NCBI GenBank assembly: GCA_965287045.1 | Contig: OZ336880.1 | Location: 73,408,001 to 73,472,000 of the forward strand | Length of the DNA stretch: 64,000 nt | Direction of reading: 5' to 3' | DNA from: Carcharhinus amblyrhynchos | Taxonomy: Eukaryota | Notes under the pieces: generated by a model | Seen by the model: only the letters and a program-made list of their open reading frames with translations | What the model was told of the DNA's origin: nothing | The model's database searches: none | Shown: positions 8,453-50,768 of the stretch, in pieces | Numbering within the stretch: position 1 is the first letter of the stretch | Layout: every line of letters starts with the position of its first letter | Program-made: the position numbers and the translations under genes

Positions 8453-8604
8453 TGAGTAAAAATAATTGCAGTAAAGTTTTCAAACCATCTCTTCCAATAT
8501 TGGATTTGAGATATATGGCAAAAATGGCAGTTTTTCCACTTAAAATGGCAAAACTATGAGACTGCAACAGACTGAATTAACGAGCCTGGATCAATAAGAG
8601 ACAT

Positions 8605-8961
8605 GATGTGGAGATTCTGGCGTTGGACTGGCTAAGCACAGTAAAAAGTCTCACAACACCAGGTTGAAGTCCAACAGGTTTATTTAGTAGCACAAGCCAC
8701 AGCTTTCGGAGTGCTGCCCCTTCATCAGGTAAGTGGGGGTTCTGTTCACAAACAGGGCACATATAGACAAATGCGATTTACAAAATAATGGCTGGAATGT
8801 GAGTCTTCACAGGTAATCAAGTCTTAAAGGTACAGACGATGTGAGTGTTCAGAAGGTTGAGCACAGATTAAAGAGATGTGTGTTGTCTCCAGCCAGGACA
8901 GTTAGTGAGACTTTGCAAGCCCAGGCAAGTCAAGGGGATTACAGATAGTATGACATGAACC
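8605..8961 (-). mobile_element. Penelope-like element 3' fragment (pLTR) with hammerhead motif
   Basis: Collinear with 24314-24681. Minus strand CCACTTAC-CTGATGA-AGGGGCAGCACTCC-GAAA-GCT-GTGG followed by AATAAA. Confidence 0.8.
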
Positions 8962-22308: not shown

Positions 22309-24313
22309 AGGAGCCACATTTACCTTTCACAAGAATTACATCCAATCAGTGGTTGTGTGCTATATCTGTAGGTGTCTTTTAGCATCTACAGGCAAGTTCA
22401 AATTAACCAGCAATTAGGACCAAAGTCATGGGCTAAATCCAAGCTTCCCAAACAGGCGAGTATGCACTATAGTATATTAAAACTGGTTATTAGCCAATTA
22501 GCAATTTTCGTGTTGGGGTTTTCTATCCGAAAGCTCCACTGTCCTGGCACCATTTCTTGCTCCCTTTTGTCAGTTCCTTAGTTAAGTAATTTAACAAGAT
22601 TATAGCATTTATGTTGCAAAATGTCAGCTGGTCTTATAACATAAATTGGGTGAAGAGTTGTGTCAGCAGGAAAATGGCATGAGTTTGCATGTTTTTTAAG
22701 AGTCCGAGATGGTCCATAATATATGTTTCATGATTAATTTACCATAAAAATATTAAACAGCTGTGGTTGTTTAAATGATTCATCAGCATAACGCCACACT
22801 AAAACTTTTCAATCAAGTTTCTTCAGGAGCTTTCGGTTCTGGGTGTTTAAATAGAGTATATTTTTAATGGATATTAAATTGATCATAGCTATGACTGAAT
22901 ATTATCATTATATTAATAATTGATTCTTAATTGTGATTGGCTGAAAGGTCACAAATCATTTGACAATTTTTGGTAGTATAACATTTAGTCATAATTCCAA
23001 TGAAATGAGGTTCACTGTTGCAAGTAAATAAAAGTGATGGTAACCATGGTGATTAAGCGTTGCATAATGGTTACACTTGACTTACTAATATTAGATTAAG
23101 TTGCAGTAAAAAATATGTTTGGTGGTGTTGATCACCTGGGTGTGTTAGTGATTCAACAGCTTTTGACTGTGTTAAACATGGGCCAGAAGCAAGACTGCTG
23201 GTGAAGCTATTTGAAGCAAGATTTTCCACTCGGCATCAGTAGCTGAGCAACATTTGAACTGCTGTTTTTGTTTTCTCCATGCCGCTTTCAGCGTTAATAT
23301 TCTGGATATAAGATTTAGTAGCAAGTTAAATTTTCCAGTCAGGTCCTGTGATAATTGGAATGCTTGGCGTGGACCCAGTTAACAACAATGGCTATTTATT
23401 AACTAATGCAGACGATGTACAGACTGCTTCAATACATGTCTGCTCCATTCACTTCTAGGATCAGTTCTGATGGTAAAAGCGCATGCCCACTGGAATTTGC
23501 ATGCTCGTGTCCCATTGGGTGATCAGGTCACATGAGCCTCTGGGCACTGAACCCTTAAAGAAGCTGACTGATACACCCTTCCCCCTTTAAGTCCCCTAAC
23601 ACATTATGGCCGGGATTCTCCAGCATTTCACACCAGCGGGATTGTCCAGTCCTGCTGCAAGTGAACGGAAATTTGGCTGAGTGCAGCGGGGTGCAGGGGG
23701 TTGGGGGGGATGGGTGGTGGGGGGAGGTGAATGGCTGGAGGATTCTGGCCTGTATCTTCAAAAGTTGAAGTATTTACATAGCATTAACAATAATAAATAT
23801 TTTTAATATAACTCATCAGAAGCTCAGTCTATCAGGAGATTTGTTTTCTCTGGGAGTGACATCGCTCAACTGGCTGTAATTCAACACAAGAGGTAGATTC
23901 AGTTGGACTTTCTTGAGTCTGTTTCTCTTTTTGTAAAGTCACATCACTTTCCACTGTTTCCTGGCTTTCAATGGGATCAACAGTTGGTTCTGCAACAGGC
24001 TGACTTACCTCTTCACTCCTTTGATCAGCGACAACACAACTAACAGGCACAATTGGAATAGCTACAACACTTGCCCTTGAGATGACTCTCAACTTCTTAA
24101 ATGATTGAAGTGCTTCTTTAGAACTTTGTCCTAAACTTCCGCTTTGTAGGATGCTGGACCAGCTCTGGCCTCTACAACTCCTGGGACCCAACTTGGCCTG
24201 TTCCCAAATCTTTTGCAAATACTGGATCTATTTATCTCAAATGCTGTTGCGAGTGTTGATGAATCATGGTTCCTTTCCTGCATACTCCACTCTTTCTGCC
24301 AAACTTGGAATTG

Positions 24314-24681
24314 ATGTGGAGATGCCGGCGTTGGACTGGGATAAACACAGTAAGAAGTCTGACAACACCAGGTTTAAGTCCAACCGATTTATTTGATAGT
24401 AAACTCACAAGCTTTCGAGGTTAACCTCTTCATCAGGTGACTGGAGAGTTCAGAGCATTTAAGCACAGACAGTTTACAGATTACTAATTAGAATGTGAAT
24501 CTTTACACCTAACCTGCTATTCAAGTCTTAAAGTGGCCAACAATGTGAGTGGAAAGAGCACTGATCACAGGTTAAAGAGATATGTATTGTCTCCAGACAG
24601 TACAGTAAGTGAGGTTTTACAAACCCAGGCAAGGTGCGGGGGTTACAGATAGTGCAACATGAACCCAAGATCCCTGTTGAG
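24314..24681 (-). mobile_element. Penelope-like pLTR fragment nested in the Gypsy element
   Basis: Collinear with 8605-8961; flanked by direct repeat ACTTGGAATTG (24303-13 and 24682-92). Confidence 0.85.
24405..24440 (-). ncRNA. Minimal type I hammerhead ribozyme motif, intact
   Basis: UCAC-CUGAUGA-A-GAGG-UUAA-CCUC-GAAA-GC-UU-GUGA: stem I UCAC/GUGA, full catalytic core, perfect stem II, palindromic AAGCUU stem III. Confidence 0.8.
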
Positions 24682-30245: not shown

Positions 30246-31695
30246 GATTCAGAATGTAACTTTTTTTTTACTGCCAGTTAATTAGGGAAATATGGCAATT
30301 CTAATTTGAACTGGATAGTTCTTTAAAGAACATAAAAACGTAAAATATAGTTGCACAAAACAAAATACTTGAACTAATACATTTGAAAACTAAACACTTC
30401 CTCGGGGCTCAGCAATTAGGTTCAGATGCTACTTGTTTCTGCTTGCAAAGGGGTTAATTAAAAAAAAAATTACTCGCATTTATGCCTCTGGCCTAGTTTC
30501 CTCCGTACTTCAGAAACACTTTTTGATAATTGCTAATGAATTGATAACAGTTAATGAATTCTTCTCAGAGTCAAATATACTGACCATGAAACATAAAGTT
30601 TGGAGTTAATATTCTATACAGGTTTTCGAGGGCATAGCGACGATAAACGTTAATTGTTTATGAATCTATTCGAATATTAAGCCATTTCCACGGATGTTAC
30701 TTTTATTATTTATATTCCTTTGTCCAGCAAATGCCACGTTGTAAGGTAGTAAATATGTTTCATGATTGATTAAATGTGCTTCAGTTTATTTGAGAGAAAA
30801 AAAATTCTTTCATTTTTTGAATACTGGAATAAATATTTGACATATTAGAGCTGAGACATTGTTCTTTGAAGGAAAATTCTTCAGTTTAGTCAACATCTGT
30901 GTTACCAAGTCAACGGTGATAATTATCTTTCATAATTGGCTGGAAAATGTTCATGCTTACCAAATGTGATTTCAATGGGCTGCCTTACATGTGTGCATTT
31001 CAATGACCTTGACCATCATATAACACTCCTCAGGGGGCTCTTCCCAGATGAAAATACCTTAGAAATGCAGTGGGTGCTCCAAGCAATAATTACTCGTAGA
31101 AAATGTGCGGTTATGTGACACATATATTCACAGCAGAATAAATAGTACCAGAATTCACTCTGAATTTACACCATGGATTTAAAGTAAATAACCATTTGGA
31201 AGCACATCAAGGATATAATGACAGGAGTGGATCGTGCAACACTGAAGTCACATTAATTTACATGCAATTCCAGTTGTTAAAAAAAAACTTAACAGAAATG
31301 TGAGCTTGCTTTCGAGACTGCAAGCAGCCTGTCTACAGCTAAAAAGAAGTAATAATCCTGTGAACGTCTTGGTAGTGGCTGATACAGAAAGGGAGTGACT
31401 TACAAATACAGTGCATTTGAGAGTTTGTGATGGAGCTTTTTGATAGGATTGACAGTGGACAATAATAAGCTTGTGATCAAAGTCATCTCACATTCCTACT
31501 CAAGAAAGGCTTGAATGGCAGTGGAGGAAAAAAATCTTCACTTGCATTGTTCTTTTTGCATCATCAATACATCACAAAAAGCTAGTAGCTAATTACTTAA
31601 GTTAAAGGTTAAAATGGTATTCACCACCCTCCAAAAACAAGCAAAACCGTGCCCCTTGTGCTCATGTAAATAAATAATGTGGAGATGTGGGTACA

Positions 31696-31829
31696 GTAAG
31701 AAGTCTCACAACATCAGGTTAAAGTCCAACAGGTTAATTTGGTATCACGAGCTTTTGGAGCACTGCTCCTTCATCAGTGATACCAAATAAACCTGTTGGA
31801 CTTTAGCCTGGTGATGTGAGACTTCTTAC
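31696..31829. mobile_element. Palindromic Penelope-derived mini-element with one central hammerhead core
   Basis: About 53-nt arms gtaagaagtctcaca..ggtatcac / gtgatacc..tgtgagacttcttac around minus-strand CTGATGAAGGAGCAGTGCTCCAAAAGCTC. Confidence 0.85.
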
Positions 31830-31843
31830 CACGCAAATAGAGA

Positions 31844-32240
31844 CAAAATACTGCAGATGCTGGAATCTGAAACAAATACAGAAAATGCTGGAAAAACTCA
31901 ACAGGTCTGACAACATCTGTGGAGGAGAATATAGCCAGCGTTTTGAGTCATTACTCTGTAACTTTAAGTTACAACTGTTTTCTTTGGAACAAAGAAAGCT
32001 GAGATGAGAAATGATAGAGGTACTCAAAATCATGGAGCGTTCTGGCCAGAATAGATAGGGAGTAATTATTCCCACATATGAAAGGCTCGAGAATGGGAGG
32101 ACACAGATTTAAAGAAATTGGTAAAAGAATCAAAAGCGATGGTTAGAAAAGGCTTTAGCCTACAGCAACTGGTTAGGATCTGGAAAACACTGCCAGTGAA
32201 TGTGGTGGAACCAGGCTCAATCAAAGCATATGAAGGAAAG
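31844..32240. mobile_element. Penelope-derived terminus (family B, 31844-31950) followed by a CR1 fragment (+, 31975-32240)
   Basis: aaaatactgcagatgctggaatctgaaacaaa as at 50565. Then tttctttggaacaaagaaagctgaga (FSLEQRKLR, CR1 ORF2). Confidence 0.7.
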
Positions 32241-41887: not shown

Positions 41888-43058
41888 GATGATTGGTGTT
41901 ATTTACAGCTCATTTTTAGGTTTGGTCATGAAGCTGTTTCCATGAGCTTCCCACAAATTCTATAAATAAGACTGATTTACTAACTACTTTATTTTGCTTA
42001 AGGAGGCTGATAAATAAATAAATTGGCATTCTTGCCCAACATTCTAATTAGTAGAATTGAAGCCACACAAATTAAATATGGAAGGACAAGAACAGTTAGT
42101 ACCTAAACTGATGTCTTGAATCTAATGCCTCAAAAATAAATTTAAATAACAAATTTCATTCAGGCATAATCCATAAATAAATGTTAGGTTTTCAGCAAAA
42201 ACTTAATAATTGACTCTGAGTTAATTTTGAGCAAAGATAGAATTTTGGCACCATATTCAATAAAATAATTTGACTTGAAAATGCAGGGTGATAGTTTTGA
42301 AGAGGTCAGTCATATCTTTCAGGAATCATAACTTACAAAGAATAAGTTCTGGATAATGTGAGTTGAGTAGAATTGGCTGTAGATTTAACATCTAAAGTGA
42401 CATTTTTGTAAAGATAAAAACTATTCTTGGAGTTTTTAGTCTGTTTACACAGAATTTAGTCAAAGGCATTTTATTTTTGCCAATAGCATTAGGGCACTCC
42501 ATAGCAACTGCATTCAATTAGATATCTATATTATACAAACAGTCATATCCTTACTGACAGTCCATTCAGTATTCTTATTGTACGTCAGTAGAGAAATTAC
42601 TAGCATTTAAAAATGACTTGCAGTAAACCAGAAATTCCTCACCTGAAATAAACTACCTTGGTAACAGTATTAAACAAATCCATTTCATTAAGGTGAATTC
42701 ATTGAATTGTTGTAATAAAGGCTTTGATTTTGTGGTTACAATTGTAGCAAAACTCAGCACTCATTGCCATTACTTTGCAAAACTAACAACAGCTTCTGGT
42801 GTGCGCACATGCATAATTGAATATCGAAATCCAAAAACTGCAGTCAGTGGTTGTGTCCTCCTCCACAGGATGTACCGCTGAAGAACTCTCAGATGGAAAC
42901 AATCTAAAAATCACTGAATTGGTGTGCATTTCTACTTTTTACATTATTCTGGCCATAAAAATTGTTTACAAATGTACACCTTGTTGAATGAACAGTAACT
43001 TATGTTTTTAACAGTGGATAGTGTCTTTTTTTATTACTAATCAACCTCTTTGGTTCAA

Positions 43059-43231
43059 TAAGAAGTCTCCACAACACCAGGTTAAAGTCCAATAGATTTA
43101 TTTGGTATCATGAGCTTTTGAAGCGCTGCTTCTTCATCAGGTAAGTCATCTGATGAAGGGGCAGCGCTCCAAAAACTCTCAATACTAAATAAAACTGTTG
43201 GACATTAATCTGGTGTTGTGAGACTTCTTAC
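43059..43231. mobile_element. Palindromic Penelope-derived mini-element with two opposed hammerhead cores
   Basis: Inverted arms centred on catcag-gtaagtcat-ctgatg. Cores at 43108-43144 (-) and 43146-43180 (+). Confidence 0.85.
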
Positions 43232-43419
43232 TGTGCCCACATTACACTGGCAGGATCTTTTAGTCCTGCTAATGGTGCACCCCTGCCATGGGCTTGCCAG
43301 CAATGAAGGGGGTGCATTCAATGGGAAACCCCATTAATAATGGCAGGACCAGAAGGTCTCACCTGCCTGCAATGATGGGGCTGTCTCCCACCTACCATGT
43401 TTACTCCTATAGGGAAATC

Positions 43420-50553: not shown

Positions 50554-50768
50554 AAGATAAAAGCAAAATACTGCAGATGCTGGAATCTGAAACAAAATCA
50601 GGAAATTCTAGAAAATCTCAGCAAGTCTGAAGGCATCTGTGGAGAGAGAATAGAGCCAATGTCAGAACTGCTCCAGGAAAGGTCATCCAGACGTGAAACG
50701 TTGGCTCTGTTCTCTCTCCACAGATGCTGTCAGATCTGCTGAGATTTTCCAACATTTTCTGTTTTGTG
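50554..50768. mobile_element. Fold-back Penelope-derived element (family B) with 15-bp target duplication
   Basis: TAAGAGTCTAAACTT at 50539-53 and 50769-83. Arms gaaaatctcagca..gcatctgtggagagagaa / ttctctctccacagatgc..tgctgagattttc. Decayed hammerhead ggtcatccagacgtgaaacgtt. Confidence 0.8.

Follow-up and report, generated by a model that had tools for sequence, protein, structure and literature searches.

A fold-back with two decayed hammerhead ribozymes in Carcharhinus amblyrhynchos is very probably a minimal inverted insertion of a Penelope-like element

In the window, i.e. the whole 64,000-nucleotide stretch of Carcharhinus amblyrhynchos DNA analysed here, positions 43056-43240 very probably represent an old, decayed and minimal insertion of a Penelope-like element (PLE), in which two short, 5'-truncated, hammerhead-bearing ends lie head to head. 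The pair likely arose anew on site and not as a copy of a palindromic master; its two ribozymes are predicted to be inactive. Because this copy has kept neither a recoverable target-site duplication (TSD) nor a full tail, its origin was read from its relatives. The observations behind this reading are its membership in the family, a parent frame with RT and GIY-YIG, two 3' end sites ~38 nt from each other, pairs with a single tail, relatives flanked by TSDs, junctions that vary from copy to copy, independent 5' extents of the arms and the loss of G12.

Results

Structure and extent of the fold-back

The fold-back consists of an inverted repeat with 71-nt arms (43070-43140 and 43150-43220; 83% complementary) around a 9-nt centre, to which an outer pair (43056-43069 and 43220-43233) adds 14 nt. 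Its minimum free energy was -115.6 kcal/mol (z -16.6), and none of 200 shuffled sequences folded equally well. A preliminary description of this DNA had reported a near-perfect fold-back of 173 nt. While the fold-back is real, "near-perfect" is too strong, as the arms mismatch each other at 16 of 89 positions, and the element is in fact 185 bases long, with ~8 nt in its right arm remaining of a tail found complete in relatives (Table 1). Both hammerhead-like cores with AAAA in place of GAAA were present at the positions described, and an AATAAA was likewise seen 3' of each core. The mismatches between the arms, together with 9 and 11 differences from the family majority, indicate an old copy. 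Single contigs from two further DNA-like runs, differing from the window at 13 of 390 and 5 of 393 bases, read across the left junction; the insertion thus exists beyond the present assembly. At the right end (43233-43240), the rest of the tail is missing and the target duplication appears to be lost, a search for a TSD having yielded chance 8-mers only.

Three side observations concern the same positions. The unrelated repeat at 43244-43399 is partly self-complementary and may have removed the tail of the element. In stem II of the left arm (43120-43132, minus strand), a transition on each side of one pair has turned G-C into A-U and kept the helix, either by chance or as a minor source variant. 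At 43139-43146 (plus strand) and in the family as a whole, the antisense of the bases just upstream of the core resembles a splice donor, the consensus of which is AG followed by GTRAGT; insertions could give host genes cryptic donors.

Table 1 Features of the element at 43056-43240 and of the repeat adjoining it (window positions).
Feature	Positions	Strand	Remarks
Whole insertion remnant	43056..43240		Head-to-head junction of two Penelope-like pLTR ends, each 5'-truncated
Tail-less arm	43056..43146	-	Outer end is the inner one of the family's two 3' end sites; inner end 6 nt before hammerhead C3; row L001 (3' end 20, 5' extent 6); 9 differences/89 nt vs family majority plus a one-base insertion
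Decayed minimal type I hammerhead	43108..43144	-	G12 to A; 3/4 pairs in stem I, 5 in stem II; 4-nt stem III still a palindrome
Central junction	43141..43149		9 nt, commonest recurrent class
Decayed minimal type I hammerhead	43146..43182	+	G12 to A; 1/4 pairs in stem I; stem III no longer a palindrome
Arm formerly bearing 3' tail	43146..43240	+	11 differences/90 nt vs family majority
PLE tail remnant	43233..43240	+	Full tail ~38 nt; in relatives the tail continues to the ORF start codon; loose contig ends at 43240
Unrelated decayed repeat	43244..43399		Adjoins the broken tail, outside the element; 68-71% matches in L280 and L059

The arms are ends of an abundant Penelope-like family

First-look candidates numbered 5798 in the 2.9-Gb genome, 40 of which were scored, and a 23-mer of the arm had 35,115 exact matches genome-wide (control, 0). 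In relatives, one arm is extended by a ~38-nt tail terminating at a start codon, and two of 30 examined loci (L066 and L084) run far into the ORF. A search based on this ORF recovered copies with an 806-aa frame that matched RVT_1 at E 1.4e-7, above the cutoff. The 3' parts of copies matched GIY-YIG at E 4e-4 and 1e-3, just below the Pfam cutoff (1.7 bits under for E 4e-4), and NCBIfam returned weak RT matches only. The same arm follows directly downstream of the ORF and in some copies stands on both sides of it. Judged from its sequence, the family is an endonuclease-bearing (EN+) PLE with the arm as its pLTR end. Indeed, the features of EN+ PLEs are present: sequence continuity with an ORF for RT and C-terminal GIY-YIG, an optional 30-40 bp tail at one end (reflecting two 3' end sites), an inverted 5'-truncated copy at the 5' end and, in the family, TSDs. 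In addition, the parent's RT-EN linker is Cys-rich, which suggests a Neptune/Nematis type (PMC8557442).

Near-intact parents exist (L124:703-3120 on the minus strand, L119 and L121), among them an 806-aa open frame and a ~3.1-kb pLTR-ORF-pLTR copy, and a younger subfamily had 6,647 exact 31-mer matches. The window, in which 10 stop-to-stop frames of at least 120 aa were found, contains three further family members. One, at 31676-31829, is a second mini-palindrome, the right arm of which starts at the predicted hammerhead cleavage site; the others, at 8602-8960 and 24313-24665 (minus strand), are longer single-arm, 5'-truncated copies with tails. An inverted repeat of a different family (50595-50765 and ~31837-31924; 68-nt arms, 84%) gave a weak mir-7094 match far under threshold. 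Elsewhere in the genome, one mini-palindrome (L002/L010; G000:C19:16774579-16775167) has been duplicated locally, in inverted orientation and with its flank.

The family hammerhead and its decay

The ribozyme was analysed in 129 short-type arms, 30 of which came from unselected sets and the remainder from loci picked by similarity or pattern. Their majority sequence is a minimal type I hammerhead with a 4-bp stem I, CUGAUGA with an additional A, a 5-bp stem II, GAAA and a self-complementary stem III of 4 nt, and thus has the core boxes, the extra base after A9, the G10.1-C11.1 pair, stems I and II and the palindromic stem III of PLE minimal hammerheads. With GAAA in the family majority, the ribozyme reading, which the preliminary description had tied to the consensus, is supported at the level of the family. 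An intact hammerhead was found in 22 of 100 sampled arms; the copy at 43056-43240 is without an intact core, both on the minus and on the plus strand (Table 1). A scan with Rfam at E<=1 gave no hammerhead match at the locus, which is not evidence either way, since the motif is too minimal and decayed.

Across the 129 arms, the C11.1-G12 dinucleotide reads CG in 38, TG in 44, CA in 42 and otherwise in 5, and CA in both arms of the copy studied here. As the harmless TG is no commoner than the damaging CA, G12 is not preferentially kept, and its loss in both cores fits neutral CpG decay, in line with what had been supposed for the change of GAAA to AAAA. In the younger subfamily, stem II sequences differ and pairing was retained in 100 of the 100 matches listed (of 6,647 exact); these changes are inherited variants and not independent events.

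The energy needed to impose the hammerhead fold is 39.9 and 46.1 kcal/mol in the 43056-43240 copy and 66.7 kcal/mol in the intact young pair L304 (the L313 minus-strand row was left out of these results), and stem II had a probability of 0.0 in the fold of the palindromic transcript. On either strand of such a transcript the antisense arm is transcribed first, and the core is therefore predicted to be buried; both ribozymes at 43056-43240 are predicted to be inactive. Arms that begin at the predicted cleavage site, including the one at window position 31777, amounted to ~3-4 of 141, too few to claim cleavage in vivo from arm starts.

These results bear on the viroid- or retrozyme-like architecture that the two cores had brought to mind, i.e. 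an RNA whose two polarities would each hold a functional ribozyme. Hammerhead viroids and viroid-like RNAs carry active ribozymes in both polarities of the replicating RNA. The locus does have a rod-like fold with one hammerhead motif per strand, and the family core is intact; however, both cores of this copy are mutated, with G12 absent from either arm, and their folds are predicted to be buried. Each strand moreover holds a single core, in inverted arrangement, whereas minimal hammerheads need a partner on the same strand (PMC4209133) and active retrozymes are defined by two tandem cores (bioRxiv 10.64898/2026.07.22.740005); two or more tandem same-strand units, each with a complete hammerhead, as in non-LTR retrozymes, were not found at the locus. 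In addition, the locus is a genomic insertion, bridged at its left junction also by the DNA-like contigs of the two other runs, and a ribozyme on each strand arises automatically from any inverted pair of ribozyme-bearing arms. An RNA of this kind is therefore extremely improbable here.

Head-to-head pairs form a continuum with variable junctions

Arms were sampled from 45 arbitrary 10-kb stretches, the window and the loci round the first 100 exact anchor matches on contig C1, giving 141 arms after an imperfect de-duplication that left a few segmental duplicates in. Their 3' ends are bimodal, lying 18-22 and 55-63 nt beyond the anchor, i.e. at sites ~38 nt apart, and an inverted partner was detected for 89 of them. 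The 43 head-to-head pairs, which contain one duplicate pair and possibly two chance neighbours, had anchor spacings of 25-1208 nt and formed a continuum of sizes. One tail was present in 35 pairs, none in five and two in three, and 27 of the 43 were flanked by a TSD of at least 8 nt (8-16 nt), compared with a mean of 2.75 in shuffled pairings. The single tails, the TSDs of relatives and the variable junctions together support an inverted pLTR integration product, one of the two origins put forward beforehand.

A short inverted repeat in high copy number and flanked by TSDs could also be a DNA-transposon MITE or a microRNA-type hairpin. This is hardly credible for arms that are PLE ends continuous with an RT/GIY-YIG frame, as the pairs have an asymmetric single tail and TSDs varying from 8 to 16 nt, and the locus itself has no match in Rfam.

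The second origin put forward beforehand was a non-autonomous ribozyme element working from either strand; in this case, the palindrome would spread as a unit from master copies by means of the PLE enzyme. Mini-palindromes are indeed numerous and flanked by TSDs, with a shared modal 9-nt centre (82 strand matches), and pLTRs can act in trans, having mobilised a host gene (PMC3846280). Very short pairs are over-represented, with 13 of the 43 at spacings of 80-115, and a minor self-propagating class could equally give this excess and the one centre. However, none of the 43 had exactly the spacing of the 43056-43240 copy, and pair sizes are continuous. Among 547 exact back-to-back cores with a gap of at most 30 nt, centres were highly varied, the 9-nt length occurring in nine of the first 50 places listed; such heterogeneity of the centre had been named in advance as pointing to independent inversion by-products. 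The 36 copies with the same centre, which include the 43056-43240 copy and were drawn from similarity- and pattern-selected loci, had the tail on the left in 16, on the right in 14 and on both sides in none, and they fall in several subfamilies, one of them with a long spacer. Mini-palindromes were found in the younger subfamily with its different stem II, too. Since one centre occurs with either tail side and in several subfamilies, we take the 9-nt centre to be a recurrent junction and not the mark of a master copy. A fixed centre and polarity with linked variants across copies, as expected of a spreading unit, were not seen. Furthermore, it is the second start site at which the short arm stops, and this speaks for a second priming event and against truncation. 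Together, these observations make spread as a unit very unlikely, and the palindromes were likely formed independently at each insertion.

Arm 5' ends cluster just upstream of the core

Of the 141 arms, 32 end 0-11 nt before C3 (mode 6-7), compared with 32 across the next 89 nt; in the short subfamily, 20 of 34 arms end in this zone. The same end zone was seen in solo arms flanked by duplications and at one tandem junction. The small size of the palindromes follows from this shared hot spot, which is possibly the RNA 5' end at an initiator-like motif. An Inr-like TCACT has been described in a pLTR (PMC3846280), and a promoter inside a pLTR (PMC2377424). A rival source of the hot spot is stalling of the RT after the ribozyme; part of the peak may also stem from alignments being biased toward the conserved core.

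Discussion

We propose that the protein of the element would nick both DNA strands ~8-16 nt apart. One nick would prime cDNA at the outer internal start site, giving the arm with the tail, and the other at the inner start site, giving the arm without it. Synthesis of both cDNAs would stop within ~10 nt on the upstream side of the ribozyme core, where the RNA 5' end likely lies, and the two would be joined head to head through microhomology or end joining, after which the inserted copy would decay neutrally. In the anole Poseidon element PAc (Frangieh et al. 2024, PMC11167929), the tail is bounded by two internal RT start sites, as it appears to be here, in agreement with the bimodal 3' ends; in vitro, the anole enzyme, a predicted dimer, cleaves both DNA strands and extends them, and insertion does not require the hammerhead. 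PAc differs in that its ORF starts in stem II and its start sites lie within the ORF, whereas the shark family has its ORF start where the tail ends.

Whether one RNA or two served as template bears on the mechanism only. In a variant that overlaps with the best explanation, the mirror half would arise by fold-back self-priming on one molecule, with an antisense template, rather than by priming at both nicks, as already proposed in PMC3846280. In favour of this variant, the arms of a pair nearly always share subfamily variants: two subfamily positions were discordant in 2 of 42 and 3 of 43 pairs (background 9%), and the spacer class agreed in 29 of 31. Against it, extra or duplicated bases are frequent at the centre where a clean loop would be expected, and a stem II A/G site, 10 nt after C3, was A/A in 367, G/G in 106 and discordant in 155 of 628 pairs, with 260 discordant pairs expected if the arms were independent. 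One-arm decay at the next base (56 of 367) sets a ceiling of ~72, about half of the discordance observed. The excess could be due to two templates, to RNA editing or to an error hot spot of the RT; as the site may simply be a hot spot, the two-template test is not decisive. Both arms thus come from one subfamily, with two templates only hinted at by these sequence comparisons, and self-priming appears rather unlikely as the source of the mirror half.

On the basis of the peak of arm ends (32 of 141; 20 of 34) and the excess discordance at this one site, we tentatively consider a broader possibility, in which the mini-palindromes are a genome-wide in vivo record of PLE integration. A dimeric enzyme would use the 5' pLTR's two internal start sites to prime both nicked strands on two separate RNAs, and would run off the transcript 5' end ~6 nt before the hammerhead, the commonest product being a strong-stop-like cDNA pair joined back to back.

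The layout is already in print (PMC3846280, PMC4209133). An inverted 5'-truncated copy, a one-sided tail and a TSD have been described for PLEs (PMC3846280, PMC8557442, PMC2377424). Adineta Pen2a/Pen2 (PMC3846280), the general EN+ PLE scheme (PMC8557442) and the inverted form in D. virilis (PMC2377424) share several features with the shark family: 5'-truncated copies arranged head to head, a tail of 30-40 bp confined to one end and reaching up to the ORF start, and TSDs, which are ~8-16 bp in the relatives studied here. In contrast to such EN+ PLE insertions, the halves at 43056-43240 are only ~90 nt long, hence without the ORF, and the tail and, as it seems, the TSD have been lost. The PLE minimal hammerheads of PMC4209133, which have no activity as monomers and low activity as dimers, share the type I core, the extra base between 9 and 10.1, the G10.1-C11.1 pair, the 4-bp stem I and the palindromic 15.2-16.2. 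Dual motifs on opposite strands are described there at distances of 100-700 bp, whereas the two cores here are just 9 nt apart, have a stem II of 5 instead of 7-8 bp and are both decayed. A PLE-related type I hammerhead, the lack of coding capacity and a rod-like fold are shared with hammerhead viroids and with non-LTR retrozymes (bioRxiv 10.64898/2026.07.22.740005); the element at 43056-43240 differs from both in having neither tandem same-strand cores nor an excisable, circularisable unit. A published description of this shark PLE family was not found in the open-access literature.

The locus is thus real, and it is an ordinary decayed inverted-pLTR stump of an abundant family, in itself minor as one dead copy among many thousands. 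For surveys of ribozymes it calls for caution, since hammerheads in two polarities of a rod-like genomic fold-back need not signal a viroid-like RNA. The family, in turn, is a large natural data set on how PLEs form head-to-head inverted halves and a one-sided tail.
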